A stretch of 64,000 nucleotides of DNA from a virus. Position numbers and translations under genes: made by a program. Below, piece after piece: positions 28,002 through 47,442 of this stretch (position 1 is the first letter of the stretch; every line of letters starts with the position of its first letter). Location of the stretch: positions 1 through 64,000 of the IMG/VR virus record IMGVR_UViG_3300014152_000001. One strand, written 5' to 3'. The notes under the pieces were generated by a model. That model was not told the DNA's origin. It searched no databases and was given only the letters and a program-made list of their open reading frames with translations.

Positions 28002-28039
28002 GAGGCTTTAAATAGTCCCTTTACCTTATTCAATGTAGT

Positions 28040-38979: not shown

Positions 38980-41325
38980 ATGAGCAGTGATGGTGCTAGA
39001 CGACCTGAAGAGGCTTTCGGCAAGACGACTCCATATGCCACCTGTCCAATCTGCCACGCCTTCATGCTAACTGAAGAGTATGACAAACACATGGCTCAAA
39101 ATCACTCACAAGAACAACGAAACAAATATACCCCAAAAGATGAAGAGAGTGGACCACAGGGCCACTTCTATGGTGATGTCTGGTCGAAGTATGAGGCCAC
39201 ACAAAGTCCGGCTTATCAACTCACCCAAGACGAGTTGGACAAGATTACTAATGAAGCGTGGGAAGGAGAAGGTTGTGAAGATTGTCGAAGCATAATTCAA
39301 AGCACCGAGATGGATAAGAAGGGCAACTATGCCATCTATCCTACATCAAGTCAAGTCGGACACATGAGCGACCTCTTCGGATACCAAACCGAGCCATCCA
39401 TGCCTACCACTGGTTATCTAGACCCAGAAGACCCCAAATGGCAACAGTCGGTTGAGCACATCCAAGAGCGACAGAAGACCCCGAAAGGGGTAGGAACCTT
39501 TGGGCCACAGTCTGGAATGACGAGAGACGAACCCACTCGTGATGAATGGCAAGTGACCAGTTATCTAGACAGCGTTGGTGTGACCTATATCCATAAGATG
39601 AAGTTAGGAGAACTAGACTCTACAACAGAGAAGCCAAAGGTTGAGTATGACCTCTATCTTCCAGACCTAGTTATGGCCATCGAAACCTCACCGGGTTGGC
39701 ATGAGGGTGGGCCACAAGCAGGAAGATTTCCACAAGTAATTGAGAATGACCACTTCAAAAAGAACTTTGCTGAAGAGCATGGAATAGACTTGGTGAGTTT
39801 CGACCCTGCTCAGGGAACGGAAAAGTTTATCAACGAAACCCTAGTGCCCAAGTTGAGGGCTGTGGGTGTGAATGCCTTTGAAGTGCCTACAACAAAGAAC
39901 GAAGAAAAGGAGAGGCTGGTATGGTGTATGGATTGTGGTGGTCTCTTTGATGACAAACCATCTCTGAACACACACTTCCAACAGACTGGACATAGTTCCG
40001 TAGGCGAAGGGACGGTAGAGAAGTATGAAGAGTTTGAGAAGGGCAATCCCTTCAATCAGCAATACATCTACCGAGAAGAAGACACGCTCCCAACATCTTG
40101 GCTTGCTCCGGTCTTCAAGTATGAGGGCTATGGGAAGGGCGAAGAGGAAGGTGGTGGAAGATTCCCAGACCCCGCTAACCATATAATGGGACCGGGAGTT
40201 GAGGTCAAGAAATGTCCTCATGGTAATGGTGTCTTCGCTACTCGTGACTTCAAAGAAGGAGAACTAATTTCAAGTTTCAAATCCCCATTTGTAAAGGAAC
40301 TTCCCGACCCTGCTCGTGGATGGGCCACTCTAAGAGTGGGAGACCTGTGGTGGGAAGAGCCAGCATCAGGAGAAGAGGACGAATGGGCCAACTTCTTAGA
40401 CCATGAGAAGTCGCCTAACTCTGTCTTTGTCAACTTCAACTTTGATGAAGGGACGGGAGACCTTATGACGACCCGACCTATCAAAACAGGAGAGGAAGTC
40501 TACATCGATTACGGTGCATACTCACCAGAGAACATAGGCGATGTCAGCGAAGACTTCGCCCCAGAAGACCTACCCCCAGAAGTTGTTCCTGCGGTCCCAG
40601 AGACGACAACTCTACCACCCACAGAGCCAGAAAAGGACTTAGGACAGGAAACAGCAGGATACGATTGGGATTACAACGTGAAGTATCGAGAAAAGCCTAT
40701 TCTTGAAGAGCAGTCTGGAATCAACCAGAATATTCCGACTGGAATATATTCCAGAGTGGAACCTCTTGCCTTTGACCAGTCCCAAAACGTGCCCAGATAC
40801 CCAGAGCGTGGGAAGGTCAATACCATAGAACAAGAGAGTGGTGGTGAAGAGTTGGCGGCTGATAGTCACCTGTTCCAAGAACAAGAGGAAGGTGGAGTCT
40901 ACCTAGCCTGTCCGAAATGCACTGGCGGTGGCGGCTTCTACAATAGGAGAGGCGATAAATGGATTACCTGCCCAATGTGTGGTGGAACGGGTAGCGGAGA
41001 GAAGCAGTTCGATTGGCCTGAAGACGAGAGAGACACCAAAAACGAGGGACGATGGGACGCACCAACACCAGACAAACAGAATGAAGCCGAGAAGATGGCC
41101 TACTATCAGTTGGCTGACGAAACAGGAGACTACATAATGAAAGCAAGAGAAGACGGCTCTCTCACAACACCAGAAGCCGATGCTCTAATGGCTCTACAAA
41201 CTCAAGCCAAAGAAGCAGTATTAGTAGACAATCTGGAGAAGGCACAAGAAATACTGGCTAAAATGGCAGAACTTGTTACGACTAAACTGGGAGTTCAAGA
41301 CCTAGACGTTGAAGGACAGCAGTGA
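38980..41325 (+). CDS. Multidomain protein: C2H2 ZnF, PD-(D/E)XK (Vsr/DUF559-like) nuclease, SET domain, DnaJ-type Zn finger
   Basis: YDLYLPD...AIE..GWH; GNGVFATRDFKEGE...ANFLDH..SPN...TRPIKTGEEVYIDYG; CPKC.G.G..CPMCGGTG. Confidence 0.8.
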   Translation: MSSDGARRPEEAFGKTTPYATCPICHAFMLTEEYDKHMAQNHSQEQRNKYTPKDEESGPQGHFYGDVWSKYEATQSPAYQLTQDELDKITNEAWEGEGCEDCRSIIQSTEMDKKGNYAIYPTSSQVGHMSDLFGYQTEPSMPTTGYLDPEDPKWQQSVEHIQERQKTPKGVGTFGPQSGMTRDEPTRDEWQVTSYLDSVGVTYIHKMKLGELDSTTEKPKVEYDLYLPDLVMAIETSPGWHEGGPQAGRFPQVIENDHFKKNFAEEHGIDLVSFDPAQGTEKFINETLVPKLRAVGVNAFEVPTTKNEEKERLVWCMDCGGLFDDKPSLNTHFQQTGHSSVGEGTVEKYEEFEKGNPFNQQYIYREEDTLPTSWLAPVFKYEGYGKGEEEGGGRFPDPANHIMGPGVEVKKCPHGNGVFATRDFKEGELISSFKSPFVKELPDPARGWATLRVGDLWWEEPASGEEDEWANFLDHEKSPNSVFVNFNFDEGTGDLMTTRPIKTGEEVYIDYGAYSPENIGDVSEDFAPEDLPPEVVPAVPETTTLPPTEPEKDLGQETAGYDWDYNVKYREKPILEEQSGINQNIPTGIYSRVEPLAFDQSQNVPRYPERGKVNTIEQESGGEELAADSHLFQEQEEGGVYLACPKCTGGGGFYNRRGDKWITCPMCGGTGSGEKQFDWPEDERDTKNEGRWDAPTPDKQNEAEKMAYYQLADETGDYIMKAREDGSLTTPEADALMALQTQAKEAVLVDNLEKAQEILAKMAELVTTKLGVQDLDVEGQQ

Positions 41326-42332: not shown

Positions 42333-42375
42333 ACTAGGACTACTTAATGGTATTGCCCTATATAAAGATTCGTTG

Positions 42376-42531
42376 TCAAGGGTATTCAAATATCCCTGTT
42401 GGTCCCATTCCTTGAGCCGCACACGCGGCTGTAGGAATGAGAGTATGGCAACTGCACCCACAACCGAAGTTCAACCTTGCATGACCGCAAGAGTCACAGA
42501 CCCCGCAACCACACTTAGAACAGAATCCCAT
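42376..42531 (-). CDS. 51-aa Cys-rich metallothionein-like protein
   Basis: MGFCSKCGCGVCDSCGH...CGCSCH (manual translation). Confidence 0.55.
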   Translation of the reverse strand: MGFCSKCGCGVCDSCGHARLNFGCGCSCHTLIPTAACAAQGMGPTGIFEYP

Positions 42532-42833
42532 CACTTCAACCCCAGATTGCGTTTAATACCCGCGATATAGACATCCAACAGAGAAGAGAAGACATTAGTG
42601 AAGGCATAGACCTCATTAGTGAAGGCATAGACCTCATTCAACTCTTTATGTGACCAGAACTCGCACTCAGATTTATGGGCTATTGGAAAGAGATACCGCA
42701 AAAGAGTGGCGAGGGCTGGCCTTGGAATATACATTGTTTCCGTGTAAGTAGGGAGCATGATTTTGTCCTTCTCAAAGTCTCCTGTCTCAAGGTCTTTGAC
42801 GATTGCATCAATACACTTTTGGCAGAGTTTCAT
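42531..42833 (-). CDS. Hypothetical protein with internal 21-bp tandem duplication
   Basis: NEVYAFT x2; cattagtgaaggcatagacct repeated at 42593-42634. Confidence 0.6.
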   Translation of the reverse strand: MKLCQKCIDAIVKDLETGDFEKDKIMLPTYTETMYIPRPALATLLRYLFPIAHKSECEFWSHKELNEVYAFTNEVYAFTNVFSSLLDVYIAGIKRNLGLK

Positions 42834-43519
42834 TTTTCCTCATCCTCTTCCTCCTTCTCCGGCATCTTAGTCTCAAAGTCCTCAATAGTGAGGGGTGTTT
42901 TAGTCATGGCATCAAATATCTCCTCATCTGCCTTTATCTTCTCAGAGTGAAGCAAGATAGACCTAGCCAAGAGATAGAAGACCGTGGCTATGGCCTTTGC
43001 GCCAGTGTTGTTGGCCGGAATGCAGAGGTCCAAATCCTCGAAAGTGGCGTTGGTGTTGCAGATGGCAATAACGGGGATACCAACGCTTCCGGCCTCTTGC
43101 ATGGCCCTTCGGTCTCCTTTTATGGCTTCTCCTATCTTCTTCGGTATGCCATTGGTAGGGTCGGAGACAATCAACACATTTGCATCAATGTAGTATTTCG
43201 ATTGAGAGTTTGTAAGACAACCCGGCATGAAGCGATGAAAGACGGTGGGTATGAGAGTGGCCTTCTCAAATGCCGTAAGAGCGTTCTCAAATCTCGCATC
43301 AGTGGCATAGAGCACAGCACCTTCGGTCTTGACTATGAACTTACCAGCCGTGTCAAGCCGAGTAAGGATGGCGTTCACATCCAAAATGGGATTGCCACTT
43401 GGAGCGATGCTAGAGACATACTGAGCCATGTCTTTAGTAACTGCTCCCTTAATGCCTAAGTGTATACCAGTGGCCTTTAGTGGCTCTTCTGTAAGGGTTT
43501 TAGGTAGGATATGACTCAT
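42830..43519 (-). CDS. rps2: Ribosomal protein uS2 homolog (archaeal type, divergent)
   Basis: GIHLG, TKDM..YV, ILDV, RFMPGCLTN, VSDP..D..A..EA...GIPVIAICNT, DLCIPANNTG.KAI..VFYLLAR.IL, IEDFETK. Confidence 0.9.
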   Translation of the reverse strand: MSHILPKTLTEEPLKATGIHLGIKGAVTKDMAQYVSSIAPSGNPILDVNAILTRLDTAGKFIVKTEGAVLYATDARFENALTAFEKATLIPTVFHRFMPGCLTNSQSKYYIDANVLIVSDPTNGIPKKIGEAIKGDRRAMQEAGSVGIPVIAICNTNATFEDLDLCIPANNTGAKAIATVFYLLARSILLHSEKIKADEEIFDAMTKTPLTIEDFETKMPEKEEEDEEK

Positions 43520-44745
43520 TGTTTGCTTACCCCTACACATCTAACCAACTCGTCCAGTATGGCCTCTACATCGTTGGTGTGAGTCTTAGCACTGCCAGCA
43601 GGTTTCAATCCACCCCCTTCCATGATGGCAGGATTGGCACTTCTGAAGGCCTTGCCAATGTGGATTGTGCTGTCCCTTCCGCCCCTACCAGAGACATGAA
43701 CCCCATACTTAGGAATGGTGTTAATGACGAACCAAGTCTTATGGTTGGTGTTGGTAAACTTACTGCATAGTGCAGAACCCATGTTCCATTTGCTACTGAT
43801 GATGGTCACACCGAAGTCTGGGTAGTCTAGTTGGGTGTAGTTGCCCCGCTTCTCTACATCTCCCTTGTCCTTTCTGTAGTTCACAGTGAGTTCCAGAAGC
43901 ATCTTAGTGTTGGAGTTCTTTGGTGTTGGAGTGGTCGTTGGAAATACAGTCGGCTCCCAGAAGAGGTCGCCCTCAATCTTTTCCTTGTTGACCATCGCAT
44001 AGAAGTCTAGCCAATTAGGAATCTTCTCCATCTCTTTCATGGCTTCATAGCAGATGGGCGGGGCTTTGTTGAATATCATCCTTCGAGGATTGTGAAGCAA
44101 TTGGGCGTAGAATGCAAGAATGCTCCAATCGTAACTACTGTTCAGACTCTTGGAAGCAAGCAATCCCCGCATAGAAGGATGCTTGTTGAGGAGTTCTTGG
44201 AAGAGAGGGCCACCTTCTTTGGTCCCAGTTGCTACATCTCCTTCTAACCCTAGCAAGGCCCACTTCTCCATGTTGACTACCGACCATCCCATCCTCTTGG
44301 CAAATGCGTAAGAGATGCCAGTAGTGCAATTCTCGGTGGATGACTCATAGTAGAAGAAGGGGAGATTGGGGAAAGGAAACTTCCCTTGGAGATTGGCTAA
44401 AGTCTTTGCATACTCTCCATAGGCTTCTGCGGTTTCAACCAAAAGGTCTGGCGGGTGGTTGTCCAAGATGATGACATTGATGCCACTGGCCAAAAATGCT
44501 ACTGCATAGTTCAGCATCTCTTGACCGCTTCCAAGGTCTAGAATGAAGACCGTTGCTGGCTTCAAGTCCATTATGTCTGAGACATTCTTATCCGTCATCC
44601 CGAAGACATCCCAATCTTGCCACATAATAGTGTGGGTAGCCTTGGGAGCATTCAGGGAGATGGCATTATGGATGATGCGACAGGCGCACATCCCATCGGT
44701 ATCTTCATCGCTGAAGATTACGGTATCCTGATTTGCTTTACTCAT
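43516..44745 (-). CDS. DHH-family phosphoesterase (RecJ/GAN-like)
   Basis: DEDTDG, ILDLG, LDNHPP, GD, SGR, GGG...AG. Confidence 0.8.
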   Translation of the reverse strand: MSKANQDTVIFSDEDTDGMCACRIIHNAISLNAPKATHTIMWQDWDVFGMTDKNVSDIMDLKPATVFILDLGSGQEMLNYAVAFLASGINVIILDNHPPDLLVETAEAYGEYAKTLANLQGKFPFPNLPFFYYESSTENCTTGISYAFAKRMGWSVVNMEKWALLGLEGDVATGTKEGGPLFQELLNKHPSMRGLLASKSLNSSYDWSILAFYAQLLHNPRRMIFNKAPPICYEAMKEMEKIPNWLDFYAMVNKEKIEGDLFWEPTVFPTTTPTPKNSNTKMLLELTVNYRKDKGDVEKRGNYTQLDYPDFGVTIISSKWNMGSALCSKFTNTNHKTWFVINTIPKYGVHVSGRGGRDSTIHIGKAFRSANPAIMEGGGLKPAGSAKTHTNDVEAILDELVRCVGVSKQ

Positions 44746-44911
44746 GACTATAGGTATCCTCTCTAACCTATATAAAGATTCTAATGGTTTAACCAGTAGA
44801 GGCAACATCTAATATGGACAAAGTGCCACGCCCAATTCCATTTGTCCCCAACCTTGCATCTAGTCAATTTACCACACTCTTTGTTCTTATAGAGACATCT
44901 CAGTGACTTCA

Positions 44912-45568
44912 TTAGATGCTCCTACGCAAACCTTTGATGTAAGGCAGTAGTCTTTCGTGGGCCTTCTCCAGAAGGATGACATCTCGCTTGTTGTGGTCTT
45001 GGATGTAGTCTCTAGCCTTCGGACTGAGCAAGGCTTGAGTCCAGATGTCGGGGTCTAGGTGCGTCTTAAGGTCTCCAAAGCCCAAGAGACTGCCTGCGTT
45101 CTCCAGTCTATTTCTGCTCATCTTCAGTTTGGACTTCACAACATAGTAGAGGTCGTGATGGATGATTGAGCCATACTCTGGGAATGGCACATTCCACTTC
45201 AGAGCACGAGTTCTCATGAAGGGGATGTCGTAACCTGTTCCGTAGTAGGTCACTACCATGTCGAATTTGAGCATATCCTCAATGCACTGAATCACTAGAG
45301 GCTTGTCCAACCTCAGTGCATCAATGTCCTTCTGTTGAATCACGTTTGAATAGATGATGTCTTTGCCTCTTACTTTGAAAGCGTAACTCAGAAGGATGCC
45401 AAAGTCTGCGTCAAGATTGGTCGCTTCGATGTCAAAGTAACCGATTCTGAAGTCGTTTTCGGTATTCGCCACAAACTCGTCCCAACATTGTGGGTGCTCC
45501 GTTCCACGATGACCGTGAACGCAATGCCAATGTTCGGCAACTATCAGTAATTTCTTTGGGTCTTTCAT
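44912..45568 (-). CDS. RNase H-fold (DnaQ/YprB-like) exonuclease
   Basis: FDIEAT, YYG..YD.PF, HHDLY, HN..DV..L. Confidence 0.85.
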   Translation of the reverse strand: MKDPKKLLIVAEHWHCVHGHRGTEHPQCWDEFVANTENDFRIGYFDIEATNLDADFGILLSYAFKVRGKDIIYSNVIQQKDIDALRLDKPLVIQCIEDMLKFDMVVTYYGTGYDIPFMRTRALKWNVPFPEYGSIIHHDLYYVVKSKLKMSRNRLENAGSLLGFGDLKTHLDPDIWTQALLSPKARDYIQDHNKRDVILLEKAHERLLPYIKGLRRSI

Positions 45569-46290
45569 ATCACTACCATACCCTTCGTTTCTACTCCTAA
45601 TAAGTGTTTGGCTTTACCCAGTCTCTCTGGAGTTCCACAATCCATGTAAGGACATTTGGCCTTGACTACCTTGAAATCGGTTCCTTTCAACATCATCAAT
45701 GAAACAACATCTGCCATAGTTCCTCTTTGGAATTGGCCATACTTTGAGAGTTGTTTCACCGTAGTCTTCATCATATCTGTGAACACCCAACCTTCTGAAT
45801 GAACGTTAAGCGTCCCACAAACGTAGGGCGGAGTCTTGATTTTTCCTTTCCAATCGAGAGTTAGAGCAGGTCGTCCAAGCATATCACCCTTCGCCACCAC
45901 TATTGCGTGTTCTTGTTCCATCAACTCATCCATGAAGTTGAAGTTCTTGAAGTAGGAGTCGATGGCTGAGAAGACGACCTCAGTAATCACACTGTGCGTC
46001 AGATACACAGGAACGTTACTGGTTATCCAAAGGGCCGGATTGTTCACCTTCTGAGCGTCTACATAGATACCAAGATTCTTATCCTTGAAAGTAGTATCCA
46101 TGTTATCCAAACGCCACTTGGCCCACCAACCTTGATTCCACTTGCTATGGACTATCCACACCGTATCCGCAGGCACGGCATCGATAATCCTCTCAAAGAG
46201 AGGAAGTCCATCAACAGAGAGCAGATGCTTCTGCACTGCTTCGGCTGAATAGCCACCAGCCAACAAAACTAAGATTCTCTTCTCACTCAT
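45565..46290 (-). CDS. Sugar-phosphate nucleotidyltransferase-like protein
   Basis: LLAGG, K.LL.VDG.PL..RII, YMDCGTPERL. Confidence 0.7.
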   Translation of the reverse strand: MSEKRILVLLAGGYSAEAVQKHLLSVDGLPLFERIIDAVPADTVWIVHSKWNQGWWAKWRLDNMDTTFKDKNLGIYVDAQKVNNPALWITSNVPVYLTHSVITEVVFSAIDSYFKNFNFMDELMEQEHAIVVAKGDMLGRPALTLDWKGKIKTPPYVCGTLNVHSEGWVFTDMMKTTVKQLSKYGQFQRGTMADVVSLMMLKGTDFKVVKAKCPYMDCGTPERLGKAKHLLGVETKGMVVI

Positions 46291-46475
46291 CTCAGTTGAC
46301 CCTTTATGAATCGTGCCTTCTGAATTGCTCTGAATAAGACATTGTTGACTTCTTCATTAGCCGCTATTTGAGCCGTCCTTTCGTCTATTCCGTTTTTCAC
46401 CATATAGTCGTAGAGAAGACGAAATATTGTGTTGGCCTCTTCCTTGGTAGGATAACTTCCAACTGATTTTTCCAT
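46287..46475 (-). CDS. Hypothetical protein
   Basis: gaatctttaaatagg promoter. Confidence 0.55.
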   Translation of the reverse strand: MEKSVGSYPTKEEANTIFRLLYDYMVKNGIDERTAQIAANEEVNNVLFRAIQKARFIKGQLR

Positions 46476-46509
46476 ACCTACCCCTACTACCCTATCCTAT
46501 TTAAAGATT

Positions 46510-47406
46510 CTATGCTTCCTTGAGCATATTCATTCCTTTACGAACCGTCCAAAAGTCGCTGGCGAGAGTTGGGTCGGACAGATAGGCGTAAGGTATCGTG
46601 AAATACCCTTCTTGCCCCCAGTCTGTTCCCCAACTGTTACGGCAGATGAATCTCTGTGAGGCATCGTTATATCCGAGACACATGACAGCATGACCACCCA
46701 CTGTATAGTCATTCGACCCCGGCATCGGCACGACTCCTGTTACTTCAACTGAGAGACTCTCAAAACTGTTGTAGACGGTGAAACCATAGACGAAAGGAAA
46801 CCCCGCGTCTAAACACGCTTTCATGTCAGCCAGTGTGGTGATACTGAAGTATTGGGTAATCTCGTGATTCGTCCCTTCAGTATAGGCATTGGTTGGCGGC
46901 TGGACAGCGAACTTGCCGATGTCATATGCCCATGTTGCTTCGTAACACGACCCTTGCTGTGCAAGAGTCTTCGCCCCATCACGAAGTTCTGCCCCAGAAT
47001 CAGTGTTTACTGTTCCTTCGATAACCCTCTCATTATAGTAGATAAAGAGTCGACTGAAATTGAGTGCTCCCGTCTGCTCCTGAAGCCCGTCCTTAATCTC
47101 AAGGAAGGCTAGTGCCCCGGCCCAAGCATTCGCAGTGCAACTTCCTAAGTCTCCTTGGTCTACGATTGGTGAATCCAGACACCGCATATCCACTACACTA
47201 TTATCAGGCGGTGTTGGCGATGGATTCGGTTTTGGGTCGAAAATGCTCATGAGCCAATTCCAGAAGTCCTGCCATATTCCTTTCTCAACAGTCTCAACCT
47301 TCATAATGTCCTGTCCTGCGTGATAGATGAAATCATTAGGGTCGTAATGGTCTTTCTTCCAACCACTGAGATTATGTTTCTTGGGTTCTTTCTTAGTTTC
47401 TGACAT
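46510..47406 (-). CDS. Papain-like (C1A) cysteine peptidase
   Basis: DQG.LGSCTAN, SRLFIYYNER, GGHAV..LGY, RNSWG..WG..GYF. Confidence 0.93.
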   Translation of the reverse strand: MSETKKEPKKHNLSGWKKDHYDPNDFIYHAGQDIMKVETVEKGIWQDFWNWLMSIFDPKPNPSPTPPDNSVVDMRCLDSPIVDQGDLGSCTANAWAGALAFLEIKDGLQEQTGALNFSRLFIYYNERVIEGTVNTDSGAELRDGAKTLAQQGSCYEATWAYDIGKFAVQPPTNAYTEGTNHEITQYFSITTLADMKACLDAGFPFVYGFTVYNSFESLSVEVTGVVPMPGSNDYTVGGHAVMCLGYNDASQRFICRNSWGTDWGQEGYFTIPYAYLSDPTLASDFWTVRKGMNMLKEA

Positions 47407-47442
47407 CGGATGTTATTACGTTTTCTTCCTATTTAAGGATTC

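Follow-up and report, generated by a model that had tools for sequence, protein, structure and literature searches.

The open reading frame at positions 42830..43519 on the minus strand (229 aa, with the stop codon included in the coordinates) is a genuine virus-encoded homologue of the archaeal ribosomal protein uS2, and the record that carries it is the complete, 106-kb genome of a tailed archaeal virus. The gene, intact and conserved, is viral and of TACK origin, and it lies in an operon of nucleic-acid metabolism. A lineage of large archaeal viruses has long kept its own version of uS2, distinguished by a lineage-specific loop. uS2 is missing from the published surveys of viral ribosomal proteins that we found: some 13-14 ribosomal proteins were detected in 424,225 viral contigs, uS2 not among them (Mizuno et al., 2019; PMC6375957, Supplementary Table 2), and it is likewise not among the ribosomal proteins named for huge phages (Al-Shayeb et al., 2020; PMC7162821). 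The virus-encoded ribosomal proteins of bacteriophages comprise bS21, bL12, bL9, bS1, uS4 and others (PMC6375957; PMC7162821). No report of a viral uS2 was found in the literature searched, the protein belongs to no PHROG family, tblastn against GenBank phage records gave no match, and a search of BFVD returned no structural match at E ≤ 0.001.

The viral uS2 resembles the phage-encoded ribosomal proteins in being a gene of cellular origin on a bona fide tailed-virus genome, in being under purifying selection and in its proposed action, substitution for the host copy. It differs from them in its archaeal/eukaryal type, in its likely archaeal host and in its clade-specific insertion. The L21e proteins of haloarchaeal Hafunaviridae have been called the first ribosomal proteins in archaeal viruses (Liu et al., 2021; PMC8651126), and they too are ribosomal protein homologues from tailed archaeal viruses; L21e, however, is a large-subunit protein from viruses of haloarchaea, whereas uS2 belongs to the small subunit and is found here in viruses of a TACK lineage. 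Ribosomal protein S2 is also carried by Borgs, extrachromosomal elements of Methanoperedens (Al-Shayeb et al., 2022; PMC9605863, Extended Data Fig. 9B), where it again resides on an archaeal mobile element and forms a clade of its own next to that of the presumed host. Borgs, which are compared here by their published description, differ in that they are not viruses, have no capsid genes and have a euryarchaeal host.

The uS2 gene and its viral genome

The first-pass annotation of the window, by which we mean the whole stretch of 64,000 nucleotides analysed, described the gene as a full-length archaeal-type uS2, and profile and structure comparisons bear this out. The 229-aa protein matches Pfam PF00318 (Ribosomal_S2) with an E-value of 1.8e-16 and 60.5 bits, above the cut-off of 26.1, and it matches TIGR01012 (uS2_euk_arch) over model positions 9-185 of 196 with an E-value of 1.2e-38. 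Its score on the latter model, 132.6 bits, lies under the equivalog cut-off of 211.5, which three cellular uS2 proteins from Nitrososphaerota/Bathyarchaeia exceed with 218-285 bits. In a phmmer search of the PDB, viral residues 15-201 align to residues 9-184 of Thermococcus uS2 (6tmf_B; E 6e-28). An AlphaFold2 model computed with 118 sequences (pLDDT 90.6, pTM 0.88) has the full-length alpha/beta fold of uS2, and the C-terminal EDFE segment is kept; the top Foldseek matches of this model are archaeal uS2 1vi5 (E 4e-20), 9fhl_B and 9qf4, and its target-normalised TM-scores against archaeal uS2 chains are 0.84-0.91. The fold, length class and conserved motifs are the same as those of cellular archaeal uS2 (TIGR01012; PDB 9fhl_B, 1vi5, 6tmf_B), from which the viral protein is set apart by an identity of at most 46%, by its score under the equivalog cut-off and by its place in a viral rather than a cellular operon. 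The start codon was placed at 43519 (MSHILPK), in agreement with the N-termini of the orthologues, which read MS(H/L)ILP, and a longer uS2 frame from 43540 was rejected on this ground. A 218-aa frame antisense to nearly all of the gene (42803-43459, plus strand) was judged to be a mechanical by-product.

The window covers the initial 64 kb of an IMG/VR record of 105,748 bp, whose classification gives it direct terminal repeats and 100% completeness; an exact terminal repeat of 123 bp was found in the record. It is well known that ribosomal proteins on a metagenome contig taken for viral should raise the suspicion of cellular contamination, and the possibility of a chimeric assembly had been raised in the first-pass annotation. 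It is nevertheless highly improbable that a cellular uS2 has been placed here by a chimeric or contaminated assembly, or that a host fragment has been binned as viral. Along with the terminal repeat, a Pfam scan of 150 predicted proteins identified the HK97-type capsid, portal, terminase large subunit and tail tube of a bona fide viral genome, together with PolB and PriX. Both ends of the uS2 gene overlap viral genes, its GC content (0.477, against 0.464 ± 0.028 for the genome) and its codon usage are typical of the virus, and the identical protein occurs on four contigs of up to 107 kb. Synteny extends to four further viral contigs at 52-83% protein identity, and among the matches listed no cellular genome searched holds a copy of more than 46% identity.

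The same Pfam scan accords with the earlier remark that no other ribosomal genes lie nearby, Ribosomal_S2 being the sole ribosomal family among the 25 families listed of the 41 found. The terminase can be aligned with those of phages over more than 90% of its length, at 25-27% identity, and no close relative of it was present among 50,697 GenBank phage records. Searches of the 64-kb window for tRNAs and Rfam families returned no match. The Pfam scan also recorded several homing endonucleases, a LAGLIDADG endonuclease and two Endonuclease VII, as well as a GNAT acetyltransferase (E 1.5e-19), a dATP/dGTP diphosphohydrolase, a SET domain, an IS110-family transposase, ERCC4 and a HerA-like ATPase.

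The gene had been described as overlap-coupled within a viral operon, following a DHH nuclease gene, and its two ends are arranged in just this way: at the start, the uS2 ATG shares bases with the TGA that ends the upstream DHH/RecJ-like gene; at the end, the uS2 TGA does the same with the ATG of a 100-aa ORF downstream (42531..42833, minus strand). The upstream gene (43516..44745, minus strand; 409 aa from the ATG at 44745, the mechanical ORF extending to 44808) encodes a RecJ/GAN-like protein of the DHH family (Pfam DHH, E 1e-4; NCBIfam RecJ_archaeal, E 2e-13; PHROG RecJ-like), whose profile matches include the archaeal RecJ/GAN structures 5x4h, 5ghr and 6tvv. This protein has DNH where the DHH motif is expected. 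Only 21 relatives of it were found at E ≤ 1e-10, several of them on contigs whose recorded lengths are equal or nearly equal to those of uS2-bearing contigs. The 100-aa ORF, which is the third cistron, has no Pfam or PHROG match and is not kept beside uS2 in the closest relative. Further upstream lies a syntenic block of four genes on the minus strand (44912..47406), headed by a papain-like cysteine protease (46510-47406; Peptidase_C1, E 1.6e-10), ending with an RNase H-fold exonuclease (44912-45568; Pfam RNase_H_2) and including a 241-aa protein (45565-46290) and a 62-aa ORF. On the plus strand, a 781-aa multidomain SET protein with zinc-finger-like segments (38980-41325; Pfam E 9e-11) is conserved in all four related contigs examined.

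In a word-indexed protein search, the four contigs with the identical uS2 were followed by about 19 further clusters at 48-80% identity, some of them on contigs of 77-111 kb; beyond these the matches drop to cellular uS2 at 41% or less. Four further IMG/VR contigs with uS2 (L086-L089, of 91, 105, 37.5 and 107 kb) have a neighbourhood in common that consists of the 241-aa protein, the RNase H-fold exonuclease, the RecJ-like protein, uS2, small ORFs and the SET protein. In four of the five viral contigs the RecJ-like gene immediately or almost immediately precedes uS2, and the papain-like protease leads the block in the window, L086 and L087, with no detectable match in L088 and L089. A third IMG/VR scan, in which divergent insertion-bearing homologues served as queries, returned only contigs already known. 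The viral uS2 is under purifying selection and is conserved in the five syntenic viral contigs. In the two closest pairs its dN/dS comes to 0.13 and 0.14, with 0.08-0.22 for the neighbouring genes; the uS2 value of 0.13 may be set beside the mean pN/pS of 0.10 reported for phage ribosomal proteins (PMC6375957). Over longer distances, conservation is higher for uS2 (52%) than for the other three of these four neighbouring genes (37-49%).

Remodelling and origin of the viral protein

Two departures from cellular uS2 that were noted at the outset, an insertion of about 12 aa after VSDP and the lack of several usual basic residues, hold across the viral clade. The inserted loop, TNGIPKKIGEAIK, is encoded at 43118..43156 on the minus strand and corresponds to approximately residues 122-134, the gap placement being arbitrary to within a residue or two. 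The 12-aa insertion is present in 18 of 18 viral-clade sequences, in which G124, P126 and K128 are conserved, and it is missing from all 10 cellular uS2 in the same alignment and from the Thermococcus uS2 of PDB 6tmf and 6skf. In the uS2 of L086 (P0017) the insertion reads TCGVPTKIGEPLKFE. The segment is modelled by AlphaFold2 as an ordered loop, with a block pLDDT of 92-94.

Outside the insertion, comparison with the uS2 of 80 archaeal species shows that the viral clade keeps 25 of the 43 columns that are at least 95% identical. The motifs GIHxG, RFxPGxLTN, DP, AxxEA..GIP and IPxNN are all kept, and the invariant motif columns are common to the 18 viral and 100 further sequences. The remaining 18 of the 43 conserved columns are altered, and the alternative residues fixed in the clade include L43N, Q138R, N158A, L177I and W182Y. 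Twelve columns, basic surface positions presumed to contact RNA, are at least 90% K/R in the 80 archaeal species, and of these the viral clade keeps four (R54, K60, R96 and K175), partly keeps three and has lost five (positions 26, 37, 74, 172 and 174), with reversals of charge at R37, replaced by E, and R74, replaced by D. The lost positions 172 and 174 adjoin the new loop, which contributes K128 and R138, and these two residues may compensate for the basic residues lost near the IPANN loop. A basic residue is found at position 172 in four of five divergent homologues, which suggests that the loss was stepwise.

These divergent homologues (P0121-P0125) were obtained by exhaustive search, are 35-47% identical and carry an insertion of 8-26 aa at the same site. 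A maximum-likelihood tree of 70 sequences, including 15 from the viral clade and these five, unites the 15 and the five in one clade (100/99), which takes in every insertion-bearing sequence. One of the five, P0124, and a homologue of the RecJ-like protein, P0289, are both recorded on a 161,867-bp JGI contig, which is probably a larger related virus. In the best tree the insertion-bearing clade falls inside the Nitrososphaerota (100/99), where it adjoins Nitrososphaerota genomes outside the Nitrososphaeraceae/Nitrosopelagicus clade, and the stem branch of the viral uS2 clade is long. Joining the viral clade with the Bathyarchaeia was not rejected by the AU test (p = 0.144). We therefore name the donor lineage with caution: it is a TACK archaeon, the Nitrososphaerota being favoured over the Bathyarchaeia by the best tree. 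Phylogeny, which the first-pass annotation had expected to identify the host as well, has delivered a single viral clade and a favoured lineage. Matching of tetranucleotide frequency and GC content gave no separation of the Bathyarchaeia from the Nitrososphaerota. The viral uS2 also gives a phylogenetic pointer to the host lineage of a virus family that is otherwise unplaced.

Cellular genomes supplied no counterpart of the viral form among the matches listed. In the Nitrososphaeria, the class of genome G001, uS2 is matched in 397 of the 401 genomes sampled, and all but one of these have a single match; the tally includes five unpublished genomes (G135, G234, G286, G330 and G368), none of which is among the top hits. 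None of the 401 sampled genomes holds a viral-type uS2, identity reaching at most 46% among the 150 matches listed. The best 80 matches among GTDB species representatives are at most 41% identical, and a scan of metagenomes yielded, among the matches listed, cellular uS2 only, at up to 42% identity, and did not recover the contigs of the divergent homologues. Cellular uS2 is a single-copy cellular gene, and the viral gene is found instead in a viral operon after the RecJ-like gene. In three Nitrososphaeria genomes one in-frame TAG occurs within the uS2 match (G100:C30:4405-5025, G063:C100:1286-1906 and G070:C3:191581-192198), which could reflect alignment overrun, an assembly error or recoding.

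Promoters and translation signals

The window has 32 occurrences of the motif CYTTAWATA, where 1.6 would be expected, and the whole genome has 49; nearly always a start codon follows 31-35 nt further on. For 43 of the 49 motifs a start codon lies 26-39 nt downstream of the motif start (mode 31-32), compared with 17% at random positions, a count that covers ORFs of at least 40 aa; both the promoter and the Shine-Dalgarno (SD) statistics use crude longest-ORF calls. Such spacing is expected of archaeal TATA boxes ahead of leaderless messages. The sites, in the window for example 413-421, 28006-28014 and 47430-47438, amount to a near-complete map of putative leaderless transcription units. A TATA-box-like motif, CTTTATATA, at 44769-44777 on the minus strand begins 32 nt upstream of the RecJ-like ATG at 44745, and the next CTTTATATA motif, at 42359-42367 on the same strand, marks the start of the following transcription unit; from these two promoters the unit is read as comprising the RecJ-like gene as first cistron, uS2 and the 100-aa ORF.

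Internal cistrons present a different signal. An SD-like 4-mer is found at -16..-5 in 52% of them, against 14% in a control window, and an SD-like 5-mer in 25% against 0%. Upstream of uS2 itself, three of the four orthologues examined (L086, L087 and L089) have an SD-like motif, GGTGA, GAGGAG or AGGTGA, at -8..-15. The description of the virus as largely leaderless holds for first cistrons, as judged by the promoter spacing of 43 of the 49 motifs. Both signals are also present, in weaker form, in G322, a GC-matched genome of the Nitrososphaeria whose uS2 is 44% identical to that of the virus: a TATA-like hexamer is found at -36..-27 in 12% of its first genes, against 3% in a control window, and a G-rich peak occurs at about -12 before internal genes. 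The genome G001 was left out of this host comparison on account of its GC content of 60%, against 46% for the virus.

The first-pass annotation had proposed that the viral uS2 replaces the host copy and so shifts initiation toward leaderless viral messages, a proposal that we now regard as distinctly improbable. The leaderless first cistrons implied by promoter spacing speak for it. Archaea, to our knowledge, are without bS1. The E. coli precedent on which the proposal drew holds in so far as leaderless mRNAs are indeed favoured, but the ribosomes concerned had lost bS1 jointly with uS2 (PMC7531240, citing Moll 2002). uS2 sits at the end of the archaeal mRNA exit chamber (PMC7531240), and in the TACK archaeon Saccharolobus the loosely bound eS26 in the exit channel competes with and excludes the SD duplex and favours leaderless mRNAs, an instance of switching at the level of a protein (PMC11698992). 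The proposal nevertheless meets the SD enrichment of internal cistrons, both for 4-mers and for 5-mers, and uS2 is itself such an internal cistron, with SD-like motifs in most of the orthologues examined. Leaderless and SD-led messages coexist, moreover, in almost all archaea (PMC7531240). The GC-matched genome G322, from the favoured host class, shares the pattern of a TATA box near -30 and internal SD motifs, so that leaderlessness does not separate viral from host messages; the virus, for its part, also relies on SD-led or coupled initiation, and the bias toward leaderless viral mRNAs is not borne out.

Candidate roles on and off the ribosome

The explanation that we consider best overall, and to which we would give about an even chance, is that of a single capture from a TACK archaeon, followed by remodelling and selection, of a protein that would supplement or replace host uS2 on the 30S subunit. 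The ancestor of a family of ~100-kb tailed archaeal viruses would have captured uS2 once from a TACK archaeon; the captured protein would then have gained the 12-aa loop and had some of its basic surface residues remodelled, and it would have been kept under purifying selection since. Expression would be from a message of three genes, with a leaderless start at the RecJ/GAN-like gene and with uS2 as second cistron, the initiation of uS2 itself depending on the stop/start overlap or on an SD-like motif. The viral protein would bind host 30S subunits at the uS2 site, where it would supplement or replace host uS2 during infection, and host ribosomes containing it would gain a virus-specific surface at that site.

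Occupation of the uS2 site on the host 30S subunit is the most likely action of the viral protein, and we infer it from three considerations. Both the fold and the best conserved motifs are retained. Viruses tend toward exchangeable ribosomal proteins, which enter ribosomes, and incorporation has been shown for the viral bS21 and bL12 (PMC6375957). Bacterial uS2, finally, dissociates readily and is easily lost from ribosomes (PMC7797042). Should the viral uS2 indeed enter host ribosomes, nature would have provided an experiment that tells in what ways an archaeal, eukaryote-like ribosome can be tuned on its exit-chamber side, and it would be clear that archaeal viruses act on translation by changing the composition of the ribosome.

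The closest documented parallel to the possible effect of a modified uS2 is eS26 of Saccharolobus (Bourgeois et al., 2025; PMC11698992), which in this TACK archaeon likewise belongs to the small subunit and is found at the mRNA exit channel. The comparison is an analogy only: eS26 is another protein with another binding site. With uS2 at the exit chamber and the precedent of eS26, a modified uS2 could affect message selection. A more specific version, in which the remodelled pocket, with K128 and R138 in the 12-aa loop and with K172 and R174 lost, produces virus-customised ribosomes once on the 30S subunit, seems to us improbable; were it true, this would be the first archaeal virus to re-engineer the mRNA-selection site of the ribosome.

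Binding to the 30S subunit has a serious, if unlikely, rival in the exaptation of the uS2 fold for a role off the ribosome, with no canonical 30S binding. The protein might be a partner of the co-inherited RecJ/GAN-like protein in replication or nucleic-acid processing, or its target might be a host factor or the host rps2 message, to which it would bind as decoy or regulator; in either case a core ribosomal protein fold would, as happens rarely, have been recruited to another task. Against such a role, the alignment-wide motifs are kept, as is the whole fold with its C-terminal EDFE segment; K128 and R138 of the new loop may replace the lost basic residues, which would fit RNA binding; and archaeal uS2 has no known non-ribosomal activity that could be invoked. 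A complex prediction for the RecJ-like protein with the viral uS2 gave a score of 0.00, which counts neither for nor against binding. What an off-ribosome role would readily accommodate is the score under the equivalog cut-off, the loss of five of the 12 conserved basic positions and the fixation of several alternative residues, together with a clade-specific ordered loop that adjoins the conserved pocket and a long stem branch followed by strong conservation. The company kept by the gene points in the same direction: the RecJ-like family, with its 21 members, is lineage-restricted, several members are on contigs that match uS2-bearing ones in recorded length, the divergent pair P0289 and P0124 are both recorded on the 161,867-bp contig, and the RecJ-like gene precedes uS2, directly or nearly so, in all but one of the five viral contigs.
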